From Schmidtea nova (Eukaryota): 64,000 nucleotides of DNA. A program made the translations under genes and the position numbers. The stretch lies in contig CM097883.1 of NCBI GenBank assembly GCA_044892505.1, positions 77,562,001 through 77,626,000 on the forward strand. Direction: 5' to 3'. Below, in pieces: positions 13,762-54,270 of the stretch. Below the pieces are notes generated by a model. That model was not told the origin of the DNA and searched no databases. It worked only from the letters and a program-made list of their open reading frames with translations. Positions within the stretch are counted from its first letter, which is position 1; each line of letters starts with the position of its first letter.

Positions 13762-15140
13762 CCTAACAACCAAAAAAAATTTGATCTAGTCATAATTATG
13801 AAAATTATTGACTTTACTTAAAAATTACAAAACAAAATTATATAAATAATTTAACAGAAATGCAACTATAACGCGTAGAGACATAAAAAGGACAAAAGAA
13901 ACACCAAGAAAAATTCATAAAAAACAAAAAATAAAAATAATTTAATATTTTTTAAAAAATTAAATTATAAAATCTTACACCAATAAAAGTAAAAAGTAAA
14001 AAAATCAAATCAAAAATTTTTTTTTATTAGGTTTATCATTTATTAATTAAAAAACTCGCAAATTAAATTTATTCTAAATATCATTAAATTATATTCAAAA
14101 ATTTCGAATAACTTTAAGGACAAATAAAAATTATTTTAATTAATCAATAAAATTAAAAAAATTGTTTATCGATCAAATTTGAACAAAAGATATTTAAAAA
14201 TAATAACAAATAAATTAAAATTCAATAAATTAAAATTCAATAAATTAAAATTGACAAATTAGCTTTCCCCAATAAATAACTCTTCCTGAAATAATACCCT
14301 CTGAGAATTTATGTAACAAAATTGAATATAAAATAGTATCTGATAAGATACAATTTTAAAAATATAAGAGTTTGTAGAAAATATAAAATATTATCAAAAA
14401 TAATAAGTTAAGTAAAATAGCAATGTTTTGATGTAATTGTAATGTGGTATATGATTGTCCTGGTATTTATGCTGTGTTACGTAATACAGTATAATTGTTG
14501 TATATAATTGTTGTATATGCTGTTAATGATGTATATTTTTATAATGATCATTTTTGTTATTGTTAATATCGTTATTATCATTATTGTTGTTTTAGTTATG
14601 GCAGCGTACAGGAATCCCCCCAATCAATTGTGCGCATGTAGGATAAATTATATTAAATATTAAATTATAATTTTAATTAGAAATTTGAATTTGGCTTGCT
14701 ATAACAAATTGCTATAATATGCCAAATGACAAATAAAAGAAATCGATATTAAAAAATTACGAAATATTGTTGGAGACAATTATTGTATAAATATCATTTT
14801 TTAGATCCAGTGGTCTTACTTTTCCGTGTACTGGATTTCCGTTTGTGATTGTTGCGTGTTCAGTTGTTTTTTCTGAATCGTCGTTGAATTGGATTGGTTC
14901 CGTTCATTCTTTGAATCGTTCCAGAATTTTGTTGATTTCTGTTGTAATTTTGTCCAGGTTAAGTTTGTTTTTGTTTTTGTCGTAACGACGCCAATGTCCA
15001 TCTTTGGTTTTTATCCACAGCTCAAGTTTGCTGTCGTATTGTTGCATTAGTATTTTCTATTATTTGTTTGTTTTTACAATCTACTAGGAGGTTGTAATTT
15101 GTTAGGAAGTCTGCTTCTATTATTGCTTGTTGGATCTCAG

Positions 15141-15377
15141 CTATGGTGAATGTCCAGTTGTAATTTTTTTATTTATTGTTAAATTTATTGTTTGTTGCCC
15201 GAAAGTTTTAATGTTTGTGCCGTTAGCTGCTGTTAATGGTTTTTCTGTTTTGTTGGCATTTTTATATATAAAATGAGGCAATAATGAAATCGCCGAGCCG
15301 GTGTCTATTAAAAAATCTGTATTATTTGTTTGCACCCAAATTGTGTTGTTTTTGTCACCTGATGTGGGTGCTATCAT
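15141..15377 (-). pseudogene. Retropepsin-type aspartic protease fragment
   Basis: FLIDTGSAISLLP...LTAANGTNIKTFG; truncated afterwards. Confidence 0.8.
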
Positions 15378-15385
15378 TGGTGACC

Positions 15386-16508
15386 TTATTGGTTTCCGTG
15401 CTTTATTTTATTAAATTCGCAGGGTTGTACGTATTTGTATGCTTTTTCCCCGAATTTATTGTAAAAATAGCAGTGGTTTTTGTTTAAGTAATTATTTCTT
15501 GAATCTTTTTCTGGGCTTTTTTTTTCGGTAATTGTTTAATCGATTTGGGGAGTTTGACCGATTTCTGTAATTGTTGTTTGGTGATTGACTGCGGCTGTAG
15601 TTTTGTCTGTTGTATTCTGAAGGTTGATTGTAGAATTGTCTGTTTTGACGGTTTTATGGTTGATCTCTGTTGTATTTGTATCTATTGTAACTATCGTATG
15701 ATTGGTTTGAGTTAAAGTTTTGTTTGTTACCTCTTTCTTTCATTTCGGCTAGTTCAGCTTTTATTTGTTTGTTTTCGAATATTATTTCGTCGAATTTGCT
15801 AATTAATGTTTTTATTAGTTTGTTTGATGTTTCATTTGGTTCAGTATTTTTGTTGTATGAAGGATTGTTGTTATTTGTTTTGTTTTTATTGTAGCTTTGA
15901 GTGCTACAGATTGTAGGGTAGATTTCCTCATTGATCTTGTCAGCTATTCCGGCAAGTGTTTCTACATCCGCGTTGCTACTAGCTGCTAGAATGCGTCTAA
16001 TTTTTGGTGGCATAACTCGCATGAAAAATTCTTTCGCTAGTTCGTTGGAGCCTGAATTTGTGATGCTGGGTTGGAGGTATTCCAATTTTTGCTTGAGTTG
16101 TCGGAGAAGATCTGTTGGTTTGTTGTCGCCTAGTTGCGTATTATTAAGGCATGACTCTAACATTTGTCTCCTGTTTATTTTGTTTTTATTTGTTAATATG
16201 TTGCAGAGTTTGTTGAACGGGTTATCGTCCTTCAATATTTCCTCAATTTGGTCTGCAATCTCATTTAGCTTGTTGTTAGTGAGTGCTGCTATGATGTTAG
16301 GGCATAAGGAATTTGTCGATTTAACTCCGGAAAGCGTTAAGGTTAGTTTCGCAAATTCTAACCATTTTTGTGGCGTTCCGTTGTCGTCGGTGAAATAATT
16401 GGGGATATTTATTCTGGGGTTGATTACTGAGCTTATGGTGTGTGTGTGTTTTCGAGGTTGTAATAATAAAGATTTTTTATTGTTGTGGTTATGTATTTTC
16501 GTTTTCAA
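15386..16508 (-). pseudogene. gag: CsRn1-lineage Gag with one in-frame stop at 15654
   Basis: LGDNKPTDLLRQLK...FFMRVMPPKIRRILA...LAGIADKINE. Reading through the stop gives CYFYNKFGKKAYKYVQPCEF (degenerate C-x2-H-x9-C-x3-C) and a terminal HGNQ* over a GGAAAC slippery-like site. Confidence 0.8.
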
Positions 16509-17458
16509 TGGGTGTTTGTCAAGTATTTGGGTCTGTTTGATTTGATACCATTTGATTTGTTTTGTTGTTGTTTCCTTTGTTGTTTATTAGTGTAAAAAAT
16601 GAGATTGAATGAAGGATATAGCCTACTGTGTTCGGCTAAAAGTATCGTTAATCCTTATACCTCTATAATAGGTATTCTAAAGGCGTTAACGTTTGAAAAA
16701 ATTCGGCGAATGCGTATTTTTTGTGATTTGTTGTTTTTCTTCTGACACCACTGTTATGTTTGTTTAAACTAGCTAAGTTATTTGTCGTTTTTCGTGCTAT
16801 ATAAAAGGGAATTATTGAAGAGCCCGAGAGAGTCTTCCAAAAAAACAAATCGTGTGGAGACACTCGGGGTGTGTGCTTATATAATGTTGGGTTCTACAAC
16901 AATTCAAAATCTGAAAACGAACAACAAAATTTAAATAATAAACTATATTTTTTACAAAAATCGTATTTAGCAAAAATCAAAATGCTAAAACCACGAAAAG
17001 TAACTTGCGATATCTTCTTTATAGTTAATTTGGTCGAAGAGTTCTGAATAAGTTCTGAAAGTTTTTCTACGTTGAAATTTGGAGGATACAAATGGGATAA
17101 TAAATGGAATTTATACAATACAATTTGAGTGGAGATCTTTTAATCAACTCAAGGATTTTCTCTGGGATATAAATGGGATAATAAATGTAAATTATACAAC
17201 AATTGTCTCCAACAATATTTCGTAATTTTTTAATATCGATTTCTTTTATTTGTCATTTGGCTTACTATAGCAACTTGCTATAGCAAGCCAAATTCAAATT
17301 TCTAATTAAAATTATAATTAAATATTTAATATAATTTTTCCTACATGCGCACAATTGATTGGGGGGATTCCTGTACGCTGCCATAATTAAAACAACAATA
17401 AAGATAATAACGATATTAACAATAATAAAAATGACCATTATAAAAATGTACAGCATGA

Positions 17459-17499
<41 letters not shown>

Positions 17500-26819: not shown

Positions 26820-27876
26820 TGTTGGGTTTTCTAATAACAAAAGATTGATCGTTGGTTACTCTGACTCCTCGTGTTCAGACAAATCAATAAACTCCGATTT
26901 TCCCAACGTATATTTGTTATCACACTTTACACTTCTCACTCACAACCAATTTCACAACAATAAATTAATAATCAAACTTTTTCTCTATTCGATCAAGCCT
27001 CGCCTCGGAAGTCTTGACCCTGTGCGATCTGAAAGTAAATATCACCTTTTAATTCCTTTATACGACTCCTTGCCTTCGATTCGATGTGTTTGACTATTTT
27101 GAATTTAATTCACTCAACTCTTTGATTCACTTTTGATATCCTTTAATTTTCTTGATCTGACTTCTTTGATTCCTTAATTTTCCACTTCTCCCAATTTCAC
27201 TTCTTCTCACAATCTCCAAAACCTATTGTCGATTTCTTCTGCCCTACCTAAGGCTAACGCCGAATTTTCTGAATTTGGAGTCTCCTTATATACTCCAATA
27301 ATCATTTTGATTACCAGCGGTTTCCTTTGATATTATGATAAAATAACTGTAATTAATCACTTCTACCGTTCCTTCATGTTATTTCCGATCTTATTTTATT
27401 TACCCTCACTTATCCTGTTGATTCCATAATAGTTCTCTAAAAGTTAAACTGTTTATTTTTCTCGATTGCCGCGCTCGGTTGTTAAAATAATGTCTCTCCA
27501 AAAGTCGTTTTGTTTGTTTTGATAATCGTTCTCCAACGTTCAGTTTGTTTATTTTCCCTAATACCCGTGCTCGAGGTTTCTTCATCTCTCGGGTTCTCCA
27601 TTGGCTCGGACTTCCCATTAGCCCGGGTTTTCCATTAGCCAATTAATTAATTAATTAATGATTTCTGTTTTAACCTTTTTTACCTATTTTCAACCCTTTC
27701 AAGACCTTTTCTGACAATTTCTTGCTCACTATCTTCTTCGCCAATCCCTGATCTACACCTATTCCGTTTTCCAGCTTCGATTTCGATTCTCTTTCATTTC
27801 GTTTCACTTCAATTTTCTTTTGATTCAAAATAATTCTAATTTAATTTAAGATAATTTTAATTTAACAACCTCAACA
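26820..27876 (-). repeat. Element 1 3' LTR
   Basis: Direct repeat of 40110-41166; only two mismatches seen by eye (about 27795 and 27867). Confidence 0.97.
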
Positions 27877-27878
27877 TA

Positions 27879-27889
27879 TCTCCCCCCTT
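27879..27889 (-). other. Polypurine tract of element 1
   Basis: Minus strand AAGGGGGGAGA, 2 nt before the 3' LTR TGTTG. Confidence 0.9.
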
Positions 27890-29434: not shown

Positions 29435-29677
29435 TTAGTCCAAGTTATTCATTTCTCCCTCCTCCATAGTTTCGTCTTCCTGCTCCTGTAGTTTCATTCG
29501 CCATAGAACTACCTCGGCTTCATATCTGAAAAGAAGAATTTCCATTTTTTCAAAACGTCTTTTGACCACCCAATTCTCTTGTTCCAGATCGAAAATTCGT
29601 TTCTCCATTGCCTTCATTTTTTTTCTCATCTCTTTCATGGTGTTAAGGCATTCTTTTAGTGATTCTTCTTCCTGCAT
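29435..29677 (-). CDS. 80-aa coiled-coil accessory ORF in the element 1 3' region (hypothetical)
   Basis: Heptad pattern LKECLNTMKEMRKKMKAMEKRIFDLEQEN with an acidic tail; preceded by TTTAACTTTAG acceptor-like site. Confidence 0.5.
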   Translation of the reverse strand: MQEEESLKECLNTMKEMRKKMKAMEKRIFDLEQENWVVKRRFEKMEILLFRYEAEVVLWRMKLQEQEDETMEEGEMNNLD

Positions 29678-29905: not shown

Positions 29906-31084
29906 TCAATGATCATAGTTAGGTGTCCTTTTACATAATACGATTGTTATTATTAGAAACACTATGGATAATATGAAAAATGCTGTTATCATAAGATAGA
30001 GTAAGTATTCACAGATGATTAATGTTTGGTTCGTTTCTTTTAAAACTAGCTTGCTCATTTGAGTTCGATTAAATTTATTTCGATTCAGGGGTGGGCCCGT
30101 GGTTGCTACTATCATCTGTGTTTGATGTGTGGCTGTTAGGATCAACTCTGGCCTTTTGATCAGTTTTGTTTCTACCAAAACTGTCTGCCAACGATATGGT
30201 TTGTCCATCCACCGCTGGTATTTGATTTTTATCAGGTAATTATCTCCTACATTAGAAGTATTAAATAAAAAGTAACTTTTACCCACATCCAACAAAACGA
30301 TAATTCTTTGATTCTCACTAATAATTACTCTTTCATTGATCATTGATTTTCTGTATATTACTATCGCTTCATACTGCACTTTGAAAATCACCATATTCGA
30401 TACATTTCTTAGGTAAATACTCTGCTTTTCGGTTTTAAACAATGCCCATCTATTGCTCATTATTGTCCCGTTATCGTATAGCATATTTTCATAATAGTTT
30501 GTTAATATGGTATAATTGGCATTCATTTTTAGGTTATAATATCGAGAATACGATTTCCGTGTATTTAATATATCAACAAAGTTTTGAAATATCACTTGTG
30601 CTTTCACCCGTTCACTTGCTATCCAATACACATTTACTCCATTTAATACCGGCTCTATTTCGACTGTATGTCGTAATTCTTTTGTTTGTATTATGACTCG
30701 AATTTGACTATCAAACTTTACCGACGAATTTGTCTCATTTTGTTTTATAAACCACGGATACTTGAAGTTCGCCTTTAATTCTTGTGCCACATACATATTT
30801 CTATCGTAATTAAGAATACTGACCGGCGTGAATGGATCTAAGAGGTTGTTAATTTCTATCTGTTCCGATACCTCACAATGATAGATCCAGACAATATTCG
30901 TATACGTAGAGTATATATTGATCTTTTCCCATAAGGGTATTTTTGTCACTGCATACGGTAAATCGACCTTCCCACCCTTAACACTTGTCAGTGTTAACAG
31001 AGCAATCATTATAAACAACATTTTTGTAATGTAACTGATTGGGACTGGGTTTTTGGTAAATTTTTGTTGAACTATGGCATCCAC
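29906..31084 (-). CDS. 392-aa predicted type I membrane glycoprotein downstream of integrase
   Basis: Signal-like MLFIMIALLTLTSVKG, beta-rich ectodomain with several NxS/T sequons, C-terminal TM YLLYLMITAFFILSIVFLIITIVLC and short tail. Overlaps the integrase tail in the -1 frame. Confidence 0.8.
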   Translation of the reverse strand: MDAIVQQKFTKNPVPISYITKMLFIMIALLTLTSVKGGKVDLPYAVTKIPLWEKINIYSTYTNIVWIYHCEVSEQIEINNLLDPFTPVSILNYDRNMYVAQELKANFKYPWFIKQNETNSSVKFDSQIRVIIQTKELRHTVEIEPVLNGVNVYWIASERVKAQVIFQNFVDILNTRKSYSRYYNLKMNANYTILTNYYENMLYDNGTIMSNRWALFKTEKQSIYLRNVSNMVIFKVQYEAIVIYRKSMINERVIISENQRIIVLLDVGKSYFLFNTSNVGDNYLIKIKYQRWMDKPYRWQTVLVETKLIKRPELILTATHQTQMIVATTGPPLNRNKFNRTQMSKLVLKETNQTLIICEYLLYLMITAFFILSIVFLIITIVLCKRTPNYDH

Positions 31085-31575
31085 TTTTTCTTGGTTTGGT
31101 TTGGTTGAAGTGGATATCTTGTTTCATCGTCTTCTGGCATTAATTTGCATCGATTTGCATGAACTATTATAGGATTAGCTTTTTTACTCCTGAATGGTAG
31201 TAGTTTCAAATTTGTTTCAGTTGTGTCACATACTTTATATGGCCCTTTAAACGGTCTCTGTAATTTTGGTGACATTCCTTTGAGCGGTTCAGGTCTATTG
31301 AGATATACCAAGTCTCCAATTTTGATTCCATGTGGATGTGCTTTTTTATCATAGGCTTCTTTATACTTTTCTTGATTGTGTTTTACCGTTAAACCAGCTT
31401 TTGCCCACACAGACTGCACTCTTTCTTGCATTAATGCTTTATAGTCTGGTATTTCCATATATTGTGTTACCGGCAATTGGAAGTTTAAATCTATCGGCAT
31501 ATTATTTCTTCTTAAATACATCAAATAAAAAGGTGTCTTATTGGATTTATTGCATTTCGGTAAGCAAACAAGCAA
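31072..31575 (-). pseudogene. Frameshifted integrase C-terminus (GPY/F region)
   Basis: KTPFYLMYLR...GDLVYL...PKLQRPFKGPYKV; continues the pol frame that is lost near 31550. Confidence 0.9.
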
Positions 31576-34500
31576 GGCTTTATATATTCATCCCAATCCC
31601 TTTGCTTACTATTAACATACGAAGAAATCATATTTATCAATGTACCGTTAAATCTCTCAACTAAGCCATCGGTTTGTGGATGATAAGGAGAACTGTTCAG
31701 CTTCCAGATTCCAAATAACTCAGTAATTGATTTAAATAATTCGCTTTGAAAGTTTGAGCCCTGATCAGTTAGTAATTTTTTTGGAGTGCCATATCTAAAG
31801 ACAATATTCTCTACGAATATTTTGGCTACCGTATCGGCCTTTTGATTTGGTATGGCGTAAGCTTCCGGCCATCTCGTCAAATAATCACAGAATACTACGA
31901 TACATTTATTTCCTTTTATTGTTTCAGGTAATGGTCCCACAATGTCCATTGCAGTCATCTCCATTGGTGTAGTTGGTACAGGCATTGGTTTTAAAGGTAC
32001 TTTAATTTTATTTCCTGTATTTCTCCTTGTAATACATATTTTACATTTCTTGCACCAATCTCTCACATCTTGCTCCATTAATGGCCAATAATATTTTTGT
32101 TTTAGTCTCGATAAAGTTTTTCTAGCCGATAAGTGCCCTCCTAAAGCTCCATCGTGATATTGCATCAGTAATGAATCTCTCTGTTTTTCAGGAATTATGA
32201 TTAGTATCTCATCGTTTTTTACACATTTTAATATTCCTTCGTGAATTATATATTTGTGATTTTCATTGATTATTTGCTTTAAATTTCTCTCTCTTTCGAC
32301 TGTAATTGCTCGTTCAAACAACTGTTTAAGTTGATTGTCCTTTTTCTGTTCATTTTGTAACTCTATCATATTGTTAACGGCTTTAATTGCGGCAAATATC
32401 GTGCCTTCAATCGTTTCTGTACTACCTTCACTTTCAATGCCTCCATTGGGAATTCTAGACATTGTATCGGCATTTGCATTAGCTTTCCCTGCTCTGTATT
32501 TAATTTCGAAATCATACTCTTGAAGAGCTATTGACCACCTAATTAATTTACTAGCTGAATCTCTATGCTTCATCAACCATTGAAGAGGATTGTGATCAGT
32601 GTATACGATAAATTTCCGTCCCAGCAAGTATTGAATAAACGTAGCGATTCCGTAAACTAACGCTAAGGTTTCTTTTTCAATTGTTGAATAATTTTTTTCA
32701 TGTGGTCTCAGTGACCTGCTTGCATACGCTATCACGTGATCCTTTTCCCCATCTACCTTCTGACCCAACACTGCGCCCAATGCAACGTTACTGGCATCCG
32801 TCATTAACAAGAACAATTTTGTAAAATCTGGGCATCGCAAAATAGGTGTCGTTATTAATTTTTGCTTCAGTGCGTCAAAAGCTTCTTGTTGAGTTTTGTT
32901 CCATATGAACTTGTTATTCTTCTTCAATAATGAATTTAACGGTTGAGCTATATGCGAGAAATTCTTTATAAACTTTCTATAATAGCTTGCTAATCCTAAG
33001 AATTGCCTCACATCATCCGCATTCTTTGGAATTGGATACACCTCCACCTTTTTAATGTTGTCAGGATTTGTTTGTAGACCTCGTCTTGATATTATGTGAC
33101 CAACATACACCACTTCGGACTTTCCCCATTCACACTTCGATGGTTTTATTTTCAATTTTGCTCCTTTTAGTCGTTTAAATACTGCCTCAACATCATCAAG
33201 ATGTTCATCAAAGCTATTTGAAAATATAATAATATCATCAATATAAACTAACGCGTGTTTTAAGCCTCTTAATACAAAATTCATACCTCTTTGAAATGTA
33301 GCCGGGGCTCCCGTCAAACCGAACGGTAGAACATTGAACTCATATAACCCTTTGCCATCTGAAAAGGCTGTCTTCTTTCTATCCTCTTCCTTGACTTTAA
33401 ATTGATTATACCCTTTATTCAAATCAATCACAGTAAAATATTGAGCTTCTCCCATCTGATCGAACATTTCCTGGGGTACAGGAATTGGATATGTATCCTT
33501 TCTTGTTACCTGGTTCAGTTTTCTGTAATCCACACAAAATCGTAAATCTCCGTCTTTTTTCTTTACAATTACAATGGACGCCGAAAACGGTGATGAGCTA
33601 TCTCTGATTATTCCAAAATCTTTCATTGCTTGAATTTGTCGATCACTTTCGGTTTGATGAATATATGGTATTCTGTACGGTTTTATTTTCACCGGGGTTT
33701 CATCCAACAACGAAATTTCATGTTCAATTATATTTGTTAACCCCAAGTCATATTCGTGTCTCGCAAAAATATCCCGGTATCTCTTCAACAATTCTGTAAA
33801 CTTTTGCCTTTGCTCTTCGGTCAAATCAGTACTTACTACTTCAGGTTCTTTATAAATTTTTACGTTTCTAGGAATCTTCCTTTCCGCTTCTATCAACATA
33901 TTAGACAATTTTCCTAGTTTCGTCTTTGGTTTTAGCCGAATTGACTTGTCACCATAATTAGCTATTCGCACTGGTAATAATTGATTTTCCACTTTCACAA
34001 TTTCGTCACACATCGGGGTCTCGTATTTTTCTATTAACTTTTGATTCGGTTCAAATATAAATTCATCATCGTCTACGCCAGCAGCGTTCGCATAATATAT
34101 TATTTCTGTTTGAGGTGGGATGGTTAACGATTGACTGAGAAATACTTCTCCTAAATTATGAATGACTTCGCCACTTTTTCCCACGATCAAATTTTTAGTT
34201 TTAAAATCCAGTAAAATTCCGTCTAACTGCTCCAGTACATCCATTCCAATCAAACACAATACAGGGCTTTTTTCCATAATCTGTACGTTATGTGTAATCT
34301 TTCTGTCACCAATTAGAAGTACCACTTCTATTTCTCCAATTATTCTCAATACGTTTTTAGACAGTGATCTGATTATGCTATTTGATGGTTTTATTTGTCT
34401 TTTTTCCTTTGCCGACAATATCTCTTCTGATATAATTGTATGACTTGATCCTGAATCCACCACAGCCTCCACTCTCTTTTTATTTAGTTGGATTAATATT

Positions 34501-35708
34501 CGTGGTTGTTTGCCAATTTTTGCTAACGTCATCAATACATAATTTCCGGGTAAACCTAACCTGTTTCGTCTTTCGATTTCGGCACTTGTTGGTTCGATTC
34601 TCTCACATTGTAAAGCAATATTTTCGACTGGTTTCATTTCCCTCAATTTTTCGACTGGATATGCTGGTAGTGGTTGGATAAACGATTTTGGTATACACAA
34701 TCTAGAAAAGGTATCCTGATTATCATTATTGGACAGCGATTCTTTTAGCAGTTGATAGTTTTTCAATGTGTTACTTTGCATTCGTTCCTCCGAGTATAAC
34801 GGGGCGGATTCATTGATATTTTCGTCATCATTTTTGTCATCGTTAGAAGTAGTAGTCAAATCGATATAACTTACCTTTTTCTTTTTCATCAGTCGTGTTT
34901 TCAAAGTTTCCATCTCTTTATACTGGTGATGTGTGATAAAAAATCTGGCTAGCAATGGAACGCATCCCATGACTAATTTCCAAGACAATCCCGTAATAGT
35001 ATACAATCTGTGTGTTGACAACACCTGCGAGATTATTACTTTAATCACGATTCCTATTACGTAGATTCCGATTAATCCAGCACAAGCTTGACCAATAAAC
35101 ATGAACTTTCCCCATATCTTTTTCATCGTATTATATGTTGCTCTTTTGTAATGATCAGGTGTTAACAAGTAGTCGTAATTTGCTTTCCCAGTTCCACTCG
35201 GGAGAATCGTGTTCACCATTTCCATAATCACCCTTTCTTTTTTTGATGGAAATAATAAATTTCTCCGGGCCGCTTCAATATCATCACTTGAATACATCCC
35301 ACTTTGCGTCATACTATCTAGCGATGTAAAATTAATCAAATACTCTAATTTGGTCAACTCCAATTTCTCTGGAACTTTCACTCCTCTGTAATCGGGTAGT
35401 GCAATCCATGATTCAGACATCAAGCGATACAGTGGAGCCAATAATCTATTACATTGCAACACTTTGGGCTTCACGCCCTCTTCCAGTAGAATGCGTGTCA
35501 CCGGTTCCATGAATCGCAATTTCTCGTTAAAATTCACTGGCAATTCATTTGTACATTGATCGAATTTCATCAATTTGATAGGTACAGCTTTGCATTTATA
35601 GCTATACAACGCTTCGCCAAAAATTCGAGCAAATACTCCGTTCTCTGATATTAGCATTGGAGCAACTAAATTCGGATTTGTAATAGCCATCGCCATTCTG
35701 TTTCGCAA
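31521..35708 (-). CDS. pol: Glycoprotein C-terminal half + TM, fused in frame to PR-RT-RNaseH-integrase
   Basis: CTNELPV ectodomain motif, hydrophobic segments at about 34930-35115, PR VVDSGS (about 34455), RT YIDD (about 33240), RH TDAS, INT zinc finger (H..GHL..C..C), MDIVGPLP / LTDQG / VERFN. Confidence 0.95.
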   Translation of the reverse strand: MRNRMAMAITNPNLVAPMLISENGVFARIFGEALYSYKCKAVPIKLMKFDQCTNELPVNFNEKLRFMEPVTRILLEEGVKPKVLQCNRLLAPLYRLMSESWIALPDYRGVKVPEKLELTKLEYLINFTSLDSMTQSGMYSSDDIEAARRNLLFPSKKERVIMEMVNTILPSGTGKANYDYLLTPDHYKRATYNTMKKIWGKFMFIGQACAGLIGIYVIGIVIKVIISQVLSTHRLYTITGLSWKLVMGCVPLLARFFITHHQYKEMETLKTRLMKKKKVSYIDLTTTSNDDKNDDENINESAPLYSEERMQSNTLKNYQLLKESLSNNDNQDTFSRLCIPKSFIQPLPAYPVEKLREMKPVENIALQCERIEPTSAEIERRNRLGLPGNYVLMTLAKIGKQPRILIQLNKKRVEAVVDSGSSHTIISEEILSAKEKRQIKPSNSIIRSLSKNVLRIIGEIEVVLLIGDRKITHNVQIMEKSPVLCLIGMDVLEQLDGILLDFKTKNLIVGKSGEVIHNLGEVFLSQSLTIPPQTEIIYYANAAGVDDDEFIFEPNQKLIEKYETPMCDEIVKVENQLLPVRIANYGDKSIRLKPKTKLGKLSNMLIEAERKIPRNVKIYKEPEVVSTDLTEEQRQKFTELLKRYRDIFARHEYDLGLTNIIEHEISLLDETPVKIKPYRIPYIHQTESDRQIQAMKDFGIIRDSSSPFSASIVIVKKKDGDLRFCVDYRKLNQVTRKDTYPIPVPQEMFDQMGEAQYFTVIDLNKGYNQFKVKEEDRKKTAFSDGKGLYEFNVLPFGLTGAPATFQRGMNFVLRGLKHALVYIDDIIIFSNSFDEHLDDVEAVFKRLKGAKLKIKPSKCEWGKSEVVYVGHIISRRGLQTNPDNIKKVEVYPIPKNADDVRQFLGLASYYRKFIKNFSHIAQPLNSLLKKNNKFIWNKTQQEAFDALKQKLITTPILRCPDFTKLFLLMTDASNVALGAVLGQKVDGEKDHVIAYASRSLRPHEKNYSTIEKETLALVYGIATFIQYLLGRKFIVYTDHNPLQWLMKHRDSASKLIRWSIALQEYDFEIKYRAGKANANADTMSRIPNGGIESEGSTETIEGTIFAAIKAVNNMIELQNEQKKDNQLKQLFERAITVERERNLKQIINENHKYIIHEGILKCVKNDEILIIIPEKQRDSLLMQYHDGALGGHLSARKTLSRLKQKYYWPLMEQDVRDWCKKCKICITRRNTGNKIKVPLKPMPVPTTPMEMTAMDIVGPLPETIKGNKCIVVFCDYLTRWPEAYAIPNQKADTVAKIFVENIVFRYGTPKKLLTDQGSNFQSELFKSITELFGIWKLNSSPYHPQTDGLVERFNGTLINMISSYVNSKQRDWDEYIKPCLFAYRNAINPIRHLFI

Positions 35709-35711
35709 AAT

Positions 35712-37925
35712 TTACTTATTTAACTTGCAATCATTTAATATAATTTCTCGATACACACTTTCAACCGTATCTTGGCTAAAATGAAACAGATAATCAATTT
35801 TGTTATTGAAATAATTCGTTAGTTTAATTTCCTCTGAATATAACTTCGTTTGAGCTTCCTCGACAATTCTTTTTGATACGTAAATTCCTTTATAATTTGT
35901 TTCATATACTGTTTGTCCACACTTGGTATTTATACCTTTTCTGAGAAATCTCATCCCATCATTCGGGGATATTGCCATTAATACCGTTGGAGTATCCTTC
36001 ATTCGCAAAGGAGTAATTCTAATCGTTGTATTCATCACTGAATTTAGAATTGTACTTTCTGGTCTCTCTTGAATTTGCTCTCCTGTTATCTCTTTGAAAG
36101 GCATCGATTTTAAATGCGCTAAGTTACACTTTTTCACATTCACGTCGTACACTAAAATTGATTCACCTGTATTACAACTGGTTTCTCTCATATTGCAAAA
36201 TGGATGCGTTTGTAATTTTCCCGTGTCATCATCGAACGATCCATCAAAATATCTCAATTCTGATTCGTACTCTTCTATAACAACGACTTTATCAATAACC
36301 TGTTCACCCACCTTGTGCGATTCACCTTCGCAATCACCATTTGCTTTGATCACCCCTTTTATTGCAATTGTTTCGCGAATTTTGTGATTCAATTTCGCTT
36401 TTAACTTAATTTCCGCATTTATTTTTAATTCTCCTGTTTGAAACGCAGCTAAACAGTTTTCGCGAGTTATCTCAATTACTCTAGGGATTGAATGCATTTT
36501 TATTAACGACGAATGACTCCATTTGCCACAATAAAATGTAAATGTGGTCCTTTTTGCCGTACATTCTCTCACTTTTACTCGTCTAAATCCTGATTCTTGA
36601 TAAACATGATATTTCATCTCACTTGCCCATTTTAAATTTCTCGGATATGCATCCAGACATTCAGCTACATCTACTAGCGAGTATACTTTTCCCATTTCTG
36701 TTTGAGAACAATCATAAGCTACCAATGACGTTGTAGTATTGATAAATCCTAATATTATGATAATAAACATAGATACCCATGGAACTATCATTTTCCCTTT
36801 TTTTGGCTCATACACCCTTTCCAAATTTTCTGGTTTTGGTGTCAAATTTTTCCATCCACCATTACCCTTGATCCAACTATTCACATACGTATTTACCACT
36901 TTTGCTGCTTGTTCAATCCACTTTTCCGATTCATCAGATTCCAGCCAACTGTAGATACCAATTTCGAAAACAATATAAGCAAGGACTGATAATACCACAT
37001 CTTTATTCAAACCGTTTTTAATTAGCTCTTTGATTACTGTTTCGTCGCAAAATATGTCTTCTTTACTAATATTTTTAAGTGCTACAGGAAGTCGTCCTTT
37101 CAGTTCTCTGGCAAGTTGTTGTATGAATTCATCGTTACATATATTCTTTTCATCCAGTGCATATAATTCCGATGCCAACCCTTTAAGAATTAATTTTGTT
37201 TGCTTTACCTCATTTAAGTCTAATTTTTCCACATCACTGGACTCCGTTTTATCTAGATCGTTTAGTTCCTCTTTATTGTTTAACTTGTATTTTCTTCGCT
37301 TCCGGTTGTTCGATTGACCACCGTCTTCTGTTTCTACAAAATTCGATTCGCATTTCATTCTCTCTGCAATTAACATCTCTTCAATTACATTGCTAATCTC
37401 TTGATTTACTGCACAAATTTTATCTGCTTCATTACTAATATTCTCGTTTTGCACTTCACTCAAATCTGTTTGTTTTGATTCGCACTCGTCACACTCGGCT
37501 TCTCTTGGTTCCTCCGTTAATTTGCTTTTGTAATTTTCACACTCGTTTTCGTTCGGTTCCTCAGATAATTCTGTTTTGATCACAGTATTGTTATCATCTT
37601 CTTTTACGATAAAGGGCCAATGAGTTCCATCCTCATAAATATTCATTTGTGTTGTGGCATAGACATTATTTATATAGTTCGGGCTGCCTCCGCAATTGAC
37701 AAAATATTCGTCATCATCTAATTCCACTCCTTTGAAAATCAGTATGATGATTCCATCGGTGCCCAATGTTTCTGCAGCTTTCCGTCGTAATTTCGCCACC
37801 TTTATGCTCCAGTGCTCTTGTAGGTATTCTACTTTTCCATTCATATTTAGAGCTATTACTAAGGATTTTGAAGTATGATCTGATACTCGGTAACCATGAC
37901 CTAGCATTCGTATTACTTCCTTCAA
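35712..37925 (-). CDS. Ubiquitin-like + acidic linker + Bcl-2-like + signal/TM + chuvirus-G-like glycoprotein N-half
   Basis: LIFKGVELDD (Ubl); ELIKNGLN...WIKGNGGW (BH1/BH2-like); hydrophobic MIVPWVSMFIIIILGFI; VAYDC..YSLVDVAEC glycoprotein start. In frame with gag (one TAA at 37989-37991) and with pol (one TAA at 35712-35714). Confidence 0.85.
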   Translation of the reverse strand: MKEVIRMLGHGYRVSDHTSKSLVIALNMNGKVEYLQEHWSIKVAKLRRKAAETLGTDGIIILIFKGVELDDDEYFVNCGGSPNYINNVYATTQMNIYEDGTHWPFIVKEDDNNTVIKTELSEEPNENECENYKSKLTEEPREAECDECESKQTDLSEVQNENISNEADKICAVNQEISNVIEEMLIAERMKCESNFVETEDGGQSNNRKRRKYKLNNKEELNDLDKTESSDVEKLDLNEVKQTKLILKGLASELYALDEKNICNDEFIQQLARELKGRLPVALKNISKEDIFCDETVIKELIKNGLNKDVVLSVLAYIVFEIGIYSWLESDESEKWIEQAAKVVNTYVNSWIKGNGGWKNLTPKPENLERVYEPKKGKMIVPWVSMFIIIILGFINTTTSLVAYDCSQTEMGKVYSLVDVAECLDAYPRNLKWASEMKYHVYQESGFRRVKVRECTAKRTTFTFYCGKWSHSSLIKMHSIPRVIEITRENCLAAFQTGELKINAEIKLKAKLNHKIRETIAIKGVIKANGDCEGESHKVGEQVIDKVVVIEEYESELRYFDGSFDDDTGKLQTHPFCNMRETSCNTGESILVYDVNVKKCNLAHLKSMPFKEITGEQIQERPESTILNSVMNTTIRITPLRMKDTPTVLMAISPNDGMRFLRKGINTKCGQTVYETNYKGIYVSKRIVEEAQTKLYSEEIKLTNYFNNKIDYLFHFSQDTVESVYREIILNDCKLNK

Positions 37926-37988
37926 TTTAACTTGATAGTTTGTTGTTTTATGAATATAAGGTAAAATATTTTCAAATAATTGTTCTTT

Positions 37989-39929
37989 TTATTTTTGATC
38001 AATTTCTGAATTCATTATATAATCAAGGCATTTATTAATTTCATCTTCATCTCCGACATATAGCATATCTCGCAGATCCTGTAATTTTTTCTCCCAACTT
38101 TTATCAGCTAAATTTGAATAATTATTGACATTTAAAATTTTTACCTCGTTTTTATATCCAGGAATTAGACCATAATCGACCAAGAATTCCTCATCCGCTA
38201 ATTGACCAATTTGACGTTGTATAAATTTTATTTGTACTTCATTTCCTTGGTATTTTGACATAATAAGCTTTCTCAAATCTTTTATCTGCCCATCTGGTTT
38301 AATAGAAAAGTGAAATTTTACGTCATCTCCATCGGTGGTTTCTACAAAAATATCAGGCAGACCTTTTGTCAATCTCAAAGCTTTTCCAAATATTTTCATC
38401 AGTTTGGCAATTTCATCATCTTGAGATTTATTGTAGAACTTTGAACATAAATTTAAAATATTTTTCAACTTTCTTTGGCTGAGTTGCATTTGAGATAGTT
38501 CGCTAATCCACTCTTTCAATTTTGGATTATTTGTTTCCATCCTCGTATACCATCTTTCTATTTTATTTATCAATAATATAGCTTTTTCGTTTGACAAGTC
38601 GTTTTTCGCTTTATCTCCAAGACTTTCTTTTTCATCGGTTTCTTTTTCGTACACCATACAAGAATCAATTTCCTCATCTGATTCGAATTTTGACATTAGT
38701 TTGTTTAATTTCTGTCTCATTTCCCGGAATTCATTTTCCATTTTCTCCTTAAACTCGTCCTTTTGAGCATAGGCTACATTAGCGTTGGATGATTCATCCT
38801 GAAATCTAATAGATCTCTTCAGTATTGGTCTGCTGAATCTTTCTGCATTCTTTGGGCATGATCGAGCCATGTGGCCATAACCTTTGCATGAATGACATTG
38901 AATTTGTCCATTTGTATTTACTTTATCTCGTTGCGGTGACGGAGATGTTGATGGTGATCGATTTTTAGAAAAGCAATTTCTGCTAATGTGACTCGTTTTC
39001 CCACATCGATAACATTCCAAGTTGCTATTGTTTGGTTTGTTTTCCACAAATATTCTTTTAGGACTACTATTTCTGCCATATTTGAACCAACATTGGTTCG
39101 AATAATGTCCGATTTTTTTGCAGTGCTCGCATACGACACTATTTGATCTCTCGGTTAGCTGGCTACCAAAAGCTGCTTTGTTAGTTTCTATCTTAGTACC
39201 TAATCTGGGAGAACTGATTGTTTGGATTGGTCTCTTGGATTCCCATTGATTTCTGACAGGTGTTATCGACCTTTCTCTCCTTTCAACATTTGCTGCGAAT
39301 GCTTCAGATTTTCTGGTGCTTTTTAAATTCAGTTCAATTTTCATTGCTTTCTTCACAAGTTCATCAAAATTTGCAAAATCTACATAACACAATGCCTTCT
39401 TTATTTCGGGATGAGCTCCAGTTATGAATTGATCTTGAAGCAGTTCTTTAACCTGCTTCACCATATCAACTTGCTCAGGCTTTGCTTCAAAGGCTTTATC
39501 TGCTAAAGTATTTAGATGATATGCAAACTCACTTACCGATTCCGTTGGATTTTGAACTCTGTTGTAAAATCTCTGTCGCATTATCCTTTTGATATCTCCA
39601 CCTACCAATTTCGTTGCCATTGCATCCTTCAATTTGGCCCAATCATTTCCAACTGTCCTTTTGTCCACTTGTTGCCAAGCTTCTCTTGCGGCTCCCTTTA
39701 AGTATAACGGAAATCTTTGTACCATTATTGCTTGTGACCATCCATAAGCTGCGGCATACATATAATAATCTCCCATGAAGTCTGCAAACTCAACCGGATC
39801 TCCACCATACTGATTCACCGGTAATTTTTGACAGCTTGCAAAATCAATCATCTCTCTATTGAGAGGCATAACAGCATTATCATTTGCCATTTGTGTTTGT
39901 TTCATACTTCTGAGGTTATATCGACTCAC
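37989..39929 (-). CDS. gag: Gag (capsid + 3 CCHC zinc knuckles) with a C-terminal ubiquitin-like extension
   Basis: Retrotransposon capsid motifs (FPLYLKGAAREAW, QNPTESVSEFA); CEHCKKIGHYSNQC, CYRCGKTSHISRNC, CHSCKGYGHMARSC; IFVETTDG...QLADEEFLVDYGL. The track start is GTG; first ATG at 39905. Confidence 0.93.
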   Translation of the reverse strand: MSRYNLRSMKQTQMANDNAVMPLNREMIDFASCQKLPVNQYGGDPVEFADFMGDYYMYAAAYGWSQAIMVQRFPLYLKGAAREAWQQVDKRTVGNDWAKLKDAMATKLVGGDIKRIMRQRFYNRVQNPTESVSEFAYHLNTLADKAFEAKPEQVDMVKQVKELLQDQFITGAHPEIKKALCYVDFANFDELVKKAMKIELNLKSTRKSEAFAANVERRERSITPVRNQWESKRPIQTISSPRLGTKIETNKAAFGSQLTERSNSVVCEHCKKIGHYSNQCWFKYGRNSSPKRIFVENKPNNSNLECYRCGKTSHISRNCFSKNRSPSTSPSPQRDKVNTNGQIQCHSCKGYGHMARSCPKNAERFSRPILKRSIRFQDESSNANVAYAQKDEFKEKMENEFREMRQKLNKLMSKFESDEEIDSCMVYEKETDEKESLGDKAKNDLSNEKAILLINKIERWYTRMETNNPKLKEWISELSQMQLSQRKLKNILNLCSKFYNKSQDDEIAKLMKIFGKALRLTKGLPDIFVETTDGDDVKFHFSIKPDGQIKDLRKLIMSKYQGNEVQIKFIQRQIGQLADEEFLVDYGLIPGYKNEVKILNVNNYSNLADKSWEKKLQDLRDMLYVGDEDEINKCLDYIMNSEIDQK

Positions 39930-40083
39930 TTTGATCTAAAATTCAAAATAAAAACAAATTAAATTTACTTGTCCTCAGCCAACTTTCAAACTTTCAAACT
40001 CAACTTCAAATTTTCAATACTTCTCTATCAACTTTATATCGAGTCGCAAATATCTATTTTCAATAATCTTTCACCAACGTTAG

Positions 40084-40101
40084 ATCACGTCGGGCTCACC
40101 A
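40084..40101 (-). other. Primer-binding site, tRNA-Trp type
   Basis: TGGTGAGCCCGACGTGAT; differs at one position from the complement of the common tRNA-Trp 3' end (TGGTGACCCCGACGTGAT). Starts 8 nt from the LTR. Confidence 0.85.
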
Positions 40102-40109
40102 ATAATATA

Positions 40110-41166
40110 TGTTGGGTTTTCTAATAACAAAAGATTGATCGTTGGTTACTCTGACTCCTCGTGTTCAGACAAATCAATAAACTCCGATTTTCCCAACGTA
40201 TATTTGTTATCACACTTTACACTTCTCACTCACAACCAATTTCACAACAATAAATTAATAATCAAACTTTTTCTCTATTCGATCAAGCCTCGCCTCGGAA
40301 GTCTTGACCCTGTGCGATCTGAAAGTAAATATCACCTTTTAATTCCTTTATACGACTCCTTGCCTTCGATTCGATGTGTTTGACTATTTTGAATTTAATT
40401 CACTCAACTCTTTGATTCACTTTTGATATCCTTTAATTTTCTTGATCTGACTTCTTTGATTCCTTAATTTTCCACTTCTCCCAATTTCACTTCTTCTCAC
40501 AATCTCCAAAACCTATTGTCGATTTCTTCTGCCCTACCTAAGGCTAACGCCGAATTTTCTGAATTTGGAGTCTCCTTATATACTCCAATAATCATTTTGA
40601 TTACCAGCGGTTTCCTTTGATATTATGATAAAATAACTGTAATTAATCACTTCTACCGTTCCTTCATGTTATTTCCGATCTTATTTTATTTACCCTCACT
40701 TATCCTGTTGATTCCATAATAGTTCTCTAAAAGTTAAACTGTTTATTTTTCTCGATTGCCGCGCTCGGTTGTTAAAATAATGTCTCTCCAAAAGTCGTTT
40801 TGTTTGTTTTGATAATCGTTCTCCAACGTTCAGTTTGTTTATTTTCCCTAATACCCGTGCTCGAGGTTTCTTCATCTCTCGGGTTCTCCATTGGCTCGGA
40901 CTTCCCATTAGCCCGGGTTTTCCATTAGCCAATTAATTAATTAATTAATGATTTCTGTTTTAACCTTTTTTACCTATTTTCAACCCTTTCAAGACCTTTT
41001 CTGACAATTTCTTGCTCACTATCTTCTTCGCCAATCCCTGATCTACACCTATTCCGTTTTCCAGCTTCGATTTCGATTCTCTTTCGTTTCGTTTCACTTC
41101 AATTTTCTTTTGATTCAAAATAATTCTAATTTAATTTAAGATAATTTTAATTTAACCACCTCAACA
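40110..41166 (-). repeat. Element 1 5' LTR
   Basis: Direct repeat of 26820-27876, TGTTG...CAACA. Confidence 0.97.
40575..40583 (-). promoter_or_regulatory. TATA box in the element 1 5' LTR
   Basis: GTATATAAG on the minus strand; the same motif sits at equivalent positions in the solo LTR (11033) and the element 2 LTR (54291). Confidence 0.6.
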
Positions 41167-50485: not shown

Positions 50486-53400
50486 TATCATAATATTGTC
50501 AATGATAATTAACAATAATCGTGTTAATTATCGTTTTAATATTTTGTTTAAATAACTTATCATTTTATAATAAATATAATTTGAATATTAAGAATTCTTA
50601 TGCGTGCATTATAACAATGGCGTCACGATTGGAAGAATTGAATCTAGATGACAACATCAATGTCGAAATATGGTTAACCGCTTTTGGTGCGATGAGTCGA
50701 GCCAATAAGTGGGTCGACAGTGACAAATCAAGACAAATCATGGACAACTTCCTATCTGTATGTGGACTGAAGGCACTCACGAAAATCCAACATATGGCTT
50801 CTCCCAAATTGCTAGAGGAGATGACGTTCAGCGAGATCAAAGCCATGCTATTGAACCACACACAGCCGAAAAGCAAAGTTGTAATAGCTGAGAGAGCAAG
50901 ATTTTATCAGCTAAGACAGGAACCGAAAGAGAAATTAGCAGATTTCTATATCAGACTCAAGAAAGCTGCTATATATTGTGACTTCAAGAAATTGAAGGAA
51001 TCAACTGACCCCAACGAGGATATGCTCCTCATGGCATTGATTACGGGAATATATGACATCAATGCTAAGGAAAAGATTTTGCTGCAAATGAGTGCTGGGA
51101 TTCCAACATGCAACGAGATCCTCGCACAAATGCAAACATATGAGGAGATATCGACGTTCATATCCCTCCAGCATGGAACAAAACCTACAATTACCTCTAC
51201 GACCGATGAAATCAATTTCATTAAAAAGAAGAGATCAAACCTTGGAACATCAAGGAAATTCGAAGAGAAAGGAAATCAAAGGTGTCATTACTGTGATCGA
51301 ATACACGAGCCAAAGAAATCCCCGGCATATGGAAAGAAGTGTACGAATTGCGACAGAATGAATCATTTTGCGAAAGCCTGCAGATCTTCGACAAAGTCGA
51401 TACACGGAACATTCGCAGATCAGACATCGTCAGCCGATGAAAGTGATAGGCAGTACATCAACCAGTTCACTTCAAATAATATTACAAGTGACATTAACCC
51501 TGTCCTCTTAGGTACAACGATAGTGAAAATGCAAAAAGATACCGGCGCATCTGTATCAATCATATCATCCAAGATGTGGGAAGACATGGGAAGACCGAAG
51601 CTTGACAAGACAAGAAGAAAGCTTGAAGCCTACGATGGGCATATCATGCAATGCCACGGCTCGTTTCTGACAACTGTGGAATGGGAAAAGCAAGTGCTTC
51701 CGGTAACAATCACAGTCATTCAATCTATGAAGGACTTCGGACTAATAGGAATGGATATACTGCAGCAGACACGACACGGAATCTTACAGTGTCAAATCAC
51801 GAAGACAACAGAATCTCAAGTGTTACCAGCAATCAAAGGTATAAAAGCTTCTATGGATTTAATCGACGATGCGAAGCCCATGTGCTGTAAGGCTAGGCCA
51901 ATACCATTAGCTTTAGAAAACAAGGTCAACGATGAACTAATAAGGTTACAGCGATTAGGAGTAATCTCTCCGTGCACCAAACCGGTACTGAATTCTTCGC
52001 CCGTGGTTTGGGTAAAAAAGAGCAATGGCGACCTCAGATTATGCGTTGACTTCAAAGTGCATATCAATAAAAAGATAAAGACCGATGCATACCCCATTCC
52101 GAACGTCGAAACAATTTTCTCAAAACTAAAGAATGCCAACAAATTTGCAAAGCTCGATCTCACATCGGCATATTGGCAGATAGAATTAGACGATAAAGCA
52201 AAGGAGATATCGTGCATAAATACGACAAAAGGTATGTTTATTGTAAATAGATTACAGATGGGTATGAAGAACGCCTCTGCAATCTTTCAAAGGACAATGG
52301 AGCAAATACTTAAAGATATCAAAGGAATACTAATCTACCAAGACGACGTACCGATTTATGCCGAGAATGAAGAATCACTAAGGAATAGACTGCAAACGGT
52401 AAAATCGCGCCTAAAAGAGAAAAAAGTTACAATCAACCAAGCAAAGACTATTGAACTTACCAATAGTGTTTCCTTCTTGGGTTTCGAAATATCGTCAAAG
52501 GGTATCACACCTGATAAAAGTCTCGTCAGCAAAATAAACAATATAAAAGAACCAACATGCAAGGAGGAAGTAGAATCTTTCATCGGGTTAATTAATTACT
52601 TTGGTAGGTTAATTCCAAATTTTTCAGACAAAACAAGAGTAATCAATGAATTGAGAAAAAAAGGTGTAAAGTTCGATTGGAACAAGGAATGCTCGAACCA
52701 GTTCAAAGCACTAAAACAAGAAATTTCAACGTATCCAGTTGTGCAACCTTACAGCCTCGAAAAGGAAGCCACATTGACGACTGATGCATCTAAACACGCC
52801 ATAGCAGCTGTCCTAACCCAAGATGGCCATCCTGTGATCTACATTTCCAGAACACTTTCGGCTGCCGAAAAAAATTACTCTAACATAGAGAGAGAGGCTT
52901 TAGCCATAGTATGGTCTATATCTAGACTACAACACTTCTTATTAGGGAGGAAATTCAAGGTGAATACAGACCACCAACCACTCCAATCCCTATTCGGTAG
53001 CGAACCACCGATTCCAAGGCGAACATCCAATCGAATTTCAAGGTGGGCCATGCTGTTGATGCAGTACGATTATGAAATATACTATGTAATGGGAAAGCAG
53101 ATCCCGCATGCAGATGCACTATCAAGACTAAAATTCATCGATGAAAAGGAAGCAAACGAGGAAATCAAAACCAAGAACACATTGAGTGTTTTCACGGTCC
53201 AGTTTAGCGAGGGCTTATTAAATGCCTCAGAGGTCAGATTGGAAACATCGCTAAACGAGTTGGCCAGAGATATCATGCGTCGCATCAAGAAAGGCAATTG
53301 GTCGAAGTGCTCACAATCAGAAATGCCATTCAAGAAAATATCAGACCGACTAACAATTGAAGATGGACTGATTTACCACGGGTCACGTCTATTCATTCCA

Positions 53401-54270
53401 CCAAAACTAAGGAAGAAATGCATTGACATAGCACACAATGAGACACATTCTGGTCTACAATCAACATTTTACCGGCTAAAGGCATCATCTTGGTGGCCTG
53501 GAATCCACGGAGACATCGACAACTTCATTAGGTCATGTGCAATTTGCAAGAAACTACATCCTCGCCCAGAGAAGAGCATTCACAAATGGCCAGAAGCGAA
53601 ACCATTCCAAAGAGTACATATGGATTGGGCCCACATCAAAGAGGTGGGCGACGTGCTCATTATTGTAGACGCTGGTTCGGGATGGATTGAAGCCTTCAAG
53701 ACATCCGATAAAACGAGTAAGTCAGTGATCACGTGCTTACGAACTGTTTTCACCAGGTTTGGAGTCCCGGAATGCATCGTCTCGGATAATGCCCAGGAAT
53801 TCACTTCACATGAGCTAAACGCGTGGATCGACAGCCTAGAGCTCCAATAATGTCTAAATTTCAACAAGGCCAGGACATCTGGTACAAAGCCAGTGAGGAT
53901 GTGGAACCAAAAGAGGGCGAATTTATCATGACTAAGGGCAACAACACTTCATACATCACCATCGAGAGTCAGAACGACAATGTGACGTTGGTTAGCAATA
54001 ACCAAATCTCAGACCGCCGGCAGATTCAGGAAGTCAAAGACGCACAACTTACGCAAGAAAAAGTACCAGCCGAATCCGACATTAGACGCAGTGGGAGACA
54101 TCGATCGAAACATAGATGTGGGTGCTGCTGATGAAAGGATATCATAATATTGTCAATGATAATTAACAATAATCGTGTTAATTATCGTTTTAATATTTTG
54201 TTTAAATAACTTATCATTTTATAATAAATATAATTTGAATATTAAGAATTCTTATGCGTGCATTATAACA
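50486..54270 (+). mobile_element. Nested short-LTR Ty3/Gypsy (Mag-like) element with a deleted integrase
   Basis: Identical 131-bp LTRs at 50486-50616 and 54140-54270; 5-bp TSD GTACT; PBS-like TGGCGTCACGA at 50618; purine tract GAAAGGA before the 3' LTR. Confidence 0.95.
50617..53850 (+). CDS. pol: Gag-Pol (Gag, CCHC, PR, RT, RH, truncated INT)
   Basis: MASRLEEL start; CTNCDRMNHFAKAC; PR KDTGAS; RT YQDD; RH TDAS; INT H..HSG..C..C, VHMDWA, VSDNA, then loss of the catalytic-E region. The 3' remnant is ORF 53823-54131. Confidence 0.93.
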   Translation: MASRLEELNLDDNINVEIWLTAFGAMSRANKWVDSDKSRQIMDNFLSVCGLKALTKIQHMASPKLLEEMTFSEIKAMLLNHTQPKSKVVIAERARFYQLRQEPKEKLADFYIRLKKAAIYCDFKKLKESTDPNEDMLLMALITGIYDINAKEKILLQMSAGIPTCNEILAQMQTYEEISTFISLQHGTKPTITSTTDEINFIKKKRSNLGTSRKFEEKGNQRCHYCDRIHEPKKSPAYGKKCTNCDRMNHFAKACRSSTKSIHGTFADQTSSADESDRQYINQFTSNNITSDINPVLLGTTIVKMQKDTGASVSIISSKMWEDMGRPKLDKTRRKLEAYDGHIMQCHGSFLTTVEWEKQVLPVTITVIQSMKDFGLIGMDILQQTRHGILQCQITKTTESQVLPAIKGIKASMDLIDDAKPMCCKARPIPLALENKVNDELIRLQRLGVISPCTKPVLNSSPVVWVKKSNGDLRLCVDFKVHINKKIKTDAYPIPNVETIFSKLKNANKFAKLDLTSAYWQIELDDKAKEISCINTTKGMFIVNRLQMGMKNASAIFQRTMEQILKDIKGILIYQDDVPIYAENEESLRNRLQTVKSRLKEKKVTINQAKTIELTNSVSFLGFEISSKGITPDKSLVSKINNIKEPTCKEEVESFIGLINYFGRLIPNFSDKTRVINELRKKGVKFDWNKECSNQFKALKQEISTYPVVQPYSLEKEATLTTDASKHAIAAVLTQDGHPVIYISRTLSAAEKNYSNIEREALAIVWSISRLQHFLLGRKFKVNTDHQPLQSLFGSEPPIPRRTSNRISRWAMLLMQYDYEIYYVMGKQIPHADALSRLKFIDEKEANEEIKTKNTLSVFTVQFSEGLLNASEVRLETSLNELARDIMRRIKKGNWSKCSQSEMPFKKISDRLTIEDGLIYHGSRLFIPPKLRKKCIDIAHNETHSGLQSTFYRLKASSWWPGIHGDIDNFIRSCAICKKLHPRPEKSIHKWPEAKPFQRVHMDWAHIKEVGDVLIIVDAGSGWIEAFKTSDKTSKSVITCLRTVFTRFGVPECIVSDNAQEFTSHELNAWIDSLELQ

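Follow-up and report, generated by a model that had tools for sequence, protein, structure and literature searches.

In a 64,000-nucleotide stretch of the Schmidtea nova genome (GCA_044892505.1, contig CM097883.1, positions 77,562,001 to 77,626,000; hereafter the window, to which coordinates refer unless a locus is named), we examined a complete long terminal repeat (LTR) retroelement of 14.35 kb lying on the minus strand at 41166-26820. We give a probability of about two in three to the reading that this copy is young and disabled and belongs to a Burro-like Ty3/gypsy GAG-ENV-POL family, whose frame of ~3,330 codons likely encodes a polyprotein with four predicted crossings of the endoplasmic reticulum (ER) membrane. 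Gag, two ubiquitin-like (Ubl) domains, a Bcl-2-like domain, a glycoprotein and then protease, reverse transcriptase, RNase H and integrase (PR-RT-RH-INT) follow one another in one frame, and integrase is followed by a second predicted membrane protein with fibronectin type III (FN3)-like domains, whose fusion to Pol appears to be the part absent from the literature searched.

The coding region of this copy comprises three minus-strand open reading frames (ORFs; stop to stop) that share a common frame and are parted by single stops, as an earlier reading made without database searches (the sequence-only reading) had noticed. ORF1 (37989-39935, 648 aa) matches Pfam Retrotrans_gag and zf-CCHC, ORF2 (35712-37988, 758 aa) matches PF24664 (E 1.6e-32), and ORF3 (31521-35711, 1396 aa) matches PF24664 again (E 2.4e-49), then RVP, RVT_1, RNase H, H2C2 and rve. 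In a search of the DNA of the same genome we scored 40 of 1139 candidates and obtained 52 matches, and we compared the lesions of this copy across 20 fetched loci, consisting of the 19 best siblings and one divergent locus. Both stop sites were open in all 20, bearing out the proposal that the stops are mutations of this copy. The first stop (37989-37991) falls within a four-helix domain between the Ubl domains and the second (35712-35714) within the glycoprotein, given that PF24664 matched in both ORF2 and ORF3. This copy also has two private frameshifts, one near 31540 and one near 31106, both absent from 15 of 15 cleanly aligned loci, with 5 of the 20 unresolved there. Because the stop sites are open throughout and the frameshifts are private, programmed read-through was rejected. 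An uninterrupted frame of at least 3329 aa was present in two of the 20 loci, the other 18 being broken elsewhere or interrupted; the glycoprotein is thus placed between Gag and protease and is continuous with Pol, as had been proposed.

The sibling frames continue past integrase to the position equivalent to 29906, and the natural polyprotein is ~3,330 aa long with its gene end beyond integrase. The product of ~2900 aa ending at integrase that had been envisaged was therefore too short, the second membrane protein having been overlooked. When the post-integrase ORF of this copy (29906-31123) was used as a query, 23 of its 111 matches fell in frames longer than 3,300 aa; 18 of these 23 frames are 3401 aa long and belong to a sister family with ~38% identity over this part, and one such frame shows the full domain order. 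In the family of a second element in the window (element 2, described below), ~30 of 150 tail matches lie in frames of 3054-3082 aa. No permutation of the order Gag, Bcl-2, G, RT and post-integrase protein was seen in the long loci examined, and GC content remains at 0.33-0.37 in every segment. One related locus (L082:8366-9983) is an internal-deletion derivative in which the first 360 LTR bases are joined directly to the FN3 region. Sister families (L040:4276-5724 and L076:1809-3728) have extra ORFs of 483 and 640 aa after the polyprotein, neither with a Pfam match.

The glycoprotein (G; 35019..36725) is of the chuvirus/gB type by its match to PF24664 (Monjiviricetes_fusion). It is preceded by a hydrophobic stretch (36726..36791) that hydropathy predicts to be its internal signal peptide, and it ends in a predicted C-terminal transmembrane (TM) helix at 35105-35019. 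Pfam, hydropathy and sequence identity together place an env between gag and pol and a gB-type ectodomain between a signal and a TM helix, as in the GAG-ENV-POL gB-type elements. The G ectodomain shares 72% identity with its counterpart in the sister family, at pN 0.16 and pS 0.79 (synonymous sites saturated), and is under strong purifying selection. The corresponding identities are 76% for Gag, 58% for PR, 85% for RT, 38% for Ubl, 37% for Bcl-2 and 41% for the FN3 part. A search with G among longer proteins returned two chimeric fragments.

Beyond integrase, a third hydrophobic stretch (30974..31021) is predicted by hydropathy to be a second internal signal peptide, followed by an ectodomain of three predicted FN3-fold domains (30146..30934), in frame with Pol in the siblings, and by a predicted C-terminal TM helix with a short tail (29906..30028; hydropathy and model) at which the polyprotein gene ends. 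The structural model of this region, built from an 11-row alignment, contains three beta-sandwich domains, a disordered stalk and a long helix, with a mean predicted confidence (pLDDT) of 72 overall and values of mostly 74-93 across all three FN3 domains. Pfam and PDB sequence searches gave no assignment for the protein, and fold comparison alone gave one: Foldseek ranked three-domain fibronectin type III fragments first (E 1e-8), and VIA-align returned Z 9.4 with a root-mean-square deviation of 4.8 over 164 aligned residues. A viral-structure search with the same model recovered generic FN3 proteins only. Fusion of a membrane protein past integrase is seen in three divergent families here and also in P0010, a metagenome protein that carries RH, INT, signal, ectodomain and TM in a single chain; an HMMER search over 1.84 billion proteins gave 4 matches, 3 of them credible relatives. 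The tail is shorter in the element 2 family, consisting of a signal, an FN3-like segment (motif identified by eye) and a TM helix. Seven sister-family frames terminate in S/T-x-V, which we take to be a PDZ-binding-type motif, whereas the family of this element lacks such an end. No fused post-integrase FN3 membrane protein was found in targeted literature searches, in the text and supplements of PMC13524379, or in the Burro section of PMC6431247 (text without its figure); Repbase entries, Grohme 2018 and Sacco 2022 lie outside that scope and may bear on novelty.

Assignment to Ty3/gypsy (Metaviridae) draws on both the ends and the Pol domains of the element. The 5' LTR (40110..41166) and 3' LTR (26820..27876), each 1057 bp by LTR alignment and the former running TG...CA, are flanked by a 4-bp target-site duplication, AATA. 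Eight nucleotides past the 5' LTR lies a primer-binding site (40084..40101) complementary to host tRNA-Trp, and the sequence next to the 3' LTR includes a polypurine tract (27879..27889). ARAGORN called tRNA-Trp(CCA) in six of six host genes of locus L090 that match the primer site, and made no call for three scattered tRNA-pattern matches elsewhere. The tRNA-Trp genes of L090 (G000:C3 near 128.04 Mb), which supply the element's primer tRNA, form a long tandem array of ~282-bp units, and the primer pattern has 1993 matches genome-wide. The two LTRs differ by only 2 substitutions, as against four lesions in the same copy; the lesions may stem from the copying of a defective template or from an assembly error.

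The order PR-RT-RH-INT is that required of Ty3/gypsy elements. Pfam identifies the aspartic protease (34212..34511), and Pfam and a PDB profile identify the RT and RNase H of Ty3/gypsy type (32514..33566), the RT being nearest to Ty3 among solved structures (E 1e-78 versus 1e-25 to 1e-29 for retroviral RTs). The integrase (31072..32195; H2C2, core and C-terminal part by Pfam) holds the two frameshifts described above. Between PR and RT lies a conserved spacer (33882..34196) at the place where Burro has a dUTPase-like domain; a profile of the spacer gave no dUTPase match against the PDB. An 80-aa ORF (29435..29677) is located in the 3' untranslated region.

At the other end of the polyprotein, Gag (38850..39905, with its first ATG at 39905) comprises a capsid and three CCHC knuckles by Pfam. 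Structure prediction and Foldseek place Ubl domain 1 at 38130..38360 (also a weak Pfam match) and Ubl domain 2 at 37653..37865, with the predicted four-helix domain between them at 37881..38096 (modelled with the stop read as X). The tandem-Ubl model shows two beta-grasp folds around the helical domain, with pLDDT of ~55-84 over residues 1-240, and its top Foldseek matches are di-ubiquitin/ISG15 (E 4e-7); six of 16 members match Pfam ubiquitin, all weakly (best E 0.005). Since the C-terminal GG is absent from both domains, conjugation appears unlikely. The Bcl-2-like domain (36850..37220) was recognized by profiles and keeps a BH2-type motif. All 60 matches listed for its family profile against the PDB are Bcl-2/Bcl-xL (best E 6e-4), and Pfam detects Bcl-2 in 14 of 16 members (best E 2e-6), with the long frames of ~3,070 aa reaching or exceeding the Pfam cut-off. 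The order Ubl-Ubl-Bcl-2 given by the sequence-only reading agrees with these Foldseek and profile results. The Bcl-2 and Ubl segments likely protect the producing cell, with a putative anti-apoptotic role.

Comparison with described elements indicates that the core layout is not new. The Burro section of PMC6431247 (Arkhipova and Yushenova 2019) describes a polyprotein of Gag with CCHC knuckles, Ubi2/SUMO-like, BCL2, env, PR, dUTPase-like, RT, RH and IN, in which env matches mononegavirus fusion glycoproteins and is presented as the first case of an env placed in frame between gag and pol. The single polyprotein Gag-Ubl-BCL2-env-PR-RT-RH-IN is common to Burro/GYPSM1 giant planarian LTR elements and the element studied here. 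According to the same section, Burro exceeds 30 kb, with an ORF1 of 4,873-5,140 aa versus 14.35 kb and ~3,330 aa here, and carries MATH/TRAF, BIR, ankyrin and Smc motifs, none of which Pfam detected in five ORFs scanned here; this element has two Ubl domains, and the section text makes no mention of an FN3 membrane protein. PMC13524379 (Chary and Hayashi, eLife RP108449), in the text and supplements, reports GAG-ENV-POL gB-type elements from Platyhelminthes, Nematoda and Bryozoa, including six from Schmidtea mediterranea, and Smed_errantivirus_1/_2/_3 share with our element their Ty3/gypsy affiliation, GAG-ENV-POL order, HSV/gB-type env and multicopy state. An env fragment is identical to Smed_errantivirus_2 (215 copies in PMC13524379) at 189 of 251 residues (75%, counted by eye), and, by eye and uncounted, sister family L039 resembles Smed_errantivirus_1 and element 2 resembles Smed_errantivirus_3. 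Unlike our description, that paper speaks of three ORFs and, in the parts consulted, lists no LTR or primer-binding site; "polyprotein", "fibronectin" and "Burro" are absent from its main text, and fibronectin, FN3, Bcl, ubiquitin, polyprotein and fused from its supplements. The span it reports minus 6 kb of flank is ~8.8 kb, close to the distance from Gag start to integrase end here, so the post-integrase part is probably either not annotated in those elements or separate there.

More distant systems share single features. Atlas virus (Belpaoviridae; PMC9094657, as far as consulted) encodes a single 2828-aa Gag-Pol-Env polyprotein with host-cleaved GN/GC and resembles our element in having membrane glycoproteins fused after Pol; it differs in being BEL/Pao, with class II GN/GC, a C-terminal envelope only and nothing between Gag and PR, and the term FN3 is used there for a different domain. 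Anakin, as presented in the part of PMC7642597 consulted, shares a chuvirus-like glycoprotein in an LTR element, but is BEL/Pao, and Ubl, Bcl-2 and FN3 modules go unmentioned in that part. Non-canonical nematode endogenous retroviruses (Sacco 2022, as cited in PMC13524379) also place env before pol. Collectively, by the features tested, the element belongs to the GAG-ENV-POL gB-type errantiviruses and has the core layout of Burro, without Burro's size and accessory domains. The earlier suggestion of a candidate new clade fails because an env inside a Gag-Pol polyprotein with Ubl and Bcl-2 has been in print since 2019, and the layout is already catalogued, in the sources cited, for both Burro and the Chary-Hayashi elements.

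Closer inspection of hydropathy revealed four hydrophobic stretches at equivalent places in three families: one ahead of G, one closing G, one past integrase and one at the C-terminus. A fifth, in the family of this element, lies within the Bcl-2 domain, a fold expected to hold a buried helix. Small residues at -3/-1 precede the predicted signal cuts, in keeping with the small-residue rule for signal peptidase. A bolder interpretation, with the odds somewhat against it, would make the planarian GAG-ENV-POL elements enveloped retroelements with two glycoproteins, produced as one four-pass polyprotein. A class III fusogen would precede Pol and a captured, adhesion-like FN3 protein serving attachment would follow integrase, with Pol pinned between the two and Gag held on a Bcl-2-type tail anchor that doubles as the signal peptide of the fusogen. 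In the reading that we favor, the stretches would act in turn as signal, stop-transfer, signal and stop-transfer. Gag-Ubl-Ubl-Bcl-2 would stay cytosolic while signal 1 sends the fusogen into the lumen and, after cleavage by signal peptidase, remains as a tail anchor on the Bcl-2-like domain that tethers Gag. TM1 would return the chain to the cytosol, leaving PR-RT-RH-INT as a loop pinned between TM1 and signal 2, which would export the FN3 ectodomain for TM2 to anchor. Budding of the tethered Gag would then co-package Pol, fusogen and FN3 protein, after which the element protease would free Gag and Pol. Cleavage by signal peptidase and the element protease, as the sequence-only reading had suggested, is a plausible route, and the modelled FN3 protein likely serves the fusogen as a partner in attachment or in targeting cell junctions.

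Several observations weigh against this four-pass interpretation. The TM and signal calls come from simple hydropathy rather than a trained predictor, and a weaker, sub-threshold hydrophobic stretch follows TM1 which, if membrane-crossing, would invert the predicted topology. The FN3 Z-scores of 8-9 are modest, and a common fold shows no function; the model of the Bcl-2-like segment is of low confidence (pLDDT <50) and its BH1 motif is degenerate. A 1:1 Gag:Pol:Env ratio is also unusual, and we saw no mechanism that would yield Gag in excess. RNA depth inside the element was mostly <1 in the one raw-read run, labelled as another organism, the other three runs being contigs; this speaks neither for nor against the interpretation. 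The stoichiometry problem would be eased if the single frame is real yet most G and FN3 protein comes from RNAs that are spliced or internally initiated, with the full-length product mainly supplying Gag-Pol. Errantiviruses and retroviruses as a rule express env from a spliced mRNA, and in this copy a methionine is found at the signal stretch of each membrane protein. We nevertheless regard this arrangement as unlikely: three families, with synonymous sites saturated, keep both junctions in frame, which separate genes would not need, a crude scan of 37300-36700 found no polypyrimidine acceptor motif, and the element 2 family has no methionine at its second signal.

Alternatively, the topology may hold with the FN3 protein acting as a cell-surface or secreted host modulator, such as a receptor decoy or adhesion mimic, and not as part of the virion, the element spreading by cell-cell fusion or staying intracellular. 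Three FN3 domains and a TM helix resemble cytokine-receptor and adhesion ectodomains, the FN3 part evolves fast, as do Ubl and Bcl-2 (41% identity versus 72% for G), sister families carry the S/T-x-V ends, and an RT-less repeat (below) has a similar signal and FN3-like segment beside TRAF and IAP genes. Obligate fusion to integrase, however, would give the FN3 protein the same stoichiometry and membrane patch as G, and the S/T-x-V end is missing from the family of this element. We rate the host-modulator role as slightly less probable than the use of subgenomic RNAs. A third account would make G a passenger or nested insertion, or the stops programmed read-through signals; it has nothing in its favor besides the two stops of this copy and is very improbable. 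The stops are open in every locus compared, no repeat family bounding the G segment was detected in the repeat analysis of the window, domain order is constant and GC uniform, and G is under strong purifying selection. Moreover, none of the 8 partial or rearranged copies that we checked was a clean Gag-Pol element lacking G, a count biased against G-less copies because the queries included G, which is a further reservation about the four-pass interpretation. Nested insertion, which the sequence-only reading had itself named as a possible refutation, was rejected on domain order, GC content and these eight copies.

The window contains other mobile sequences. Element 2 (55035-64000, minus strand, continuing into L021) represents a second GAG-ENV-POL family, with one Ubl domain, a Bcl-2-like domain, G, Pol, signal, one FN3-like segment and TM, and is broken in two places, by a stop (60806) and by a frameshift (near 57900). 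Downstream of it, an 856-aa ORF (55035-57605, minus strand) has no Pfam match; part of it is, by eye, what we take to be a candidate DEDD-type exonuclease. A small env-less gypsy-type element (50486-54270, plus strand) has a 1113-aa ORF with a shortened integrase between 131-bp direct repeats, and 283-bp inverted repeats, 94% complementary and 2375 bp apart, at 14521-17461 likely mark a DNA transposon. Elsewhere in the genome, a BIR search for giant Burro copies yielded 1295 BIR candidates and, instead of Burro, a very abundant RT-less repeat (L078:4283-9782, L079:1-2852; L072:3042-6176). Its ORFs encode a protease and ankyrin with a signal and FN3-like end (by eye), RING-TRAF-MATH and BIR-RING, and no RT or G match was found in 50-60 kb around two copies; the repeat apparently holds the accessory domains of Burro, with pol seemingly absent.

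Together, these findings describe a compact and recently active family in greater anatomical detail, adding a second membrane protein after integrase and a self-consistent four-pass topology. If the four-pass interpretation is true, Pol and two envelope proteins would be packaged without frameshifting or splicing. Herpesvirus gB works with a separate attachment protein, and gB-type retroelement fusogens may, if the same interpretation holds, do likewise. At 14 kb, the element is also a more tractable system than the 30-kb Burro in which to ask if retroelements of planarians pass from cell to cell.

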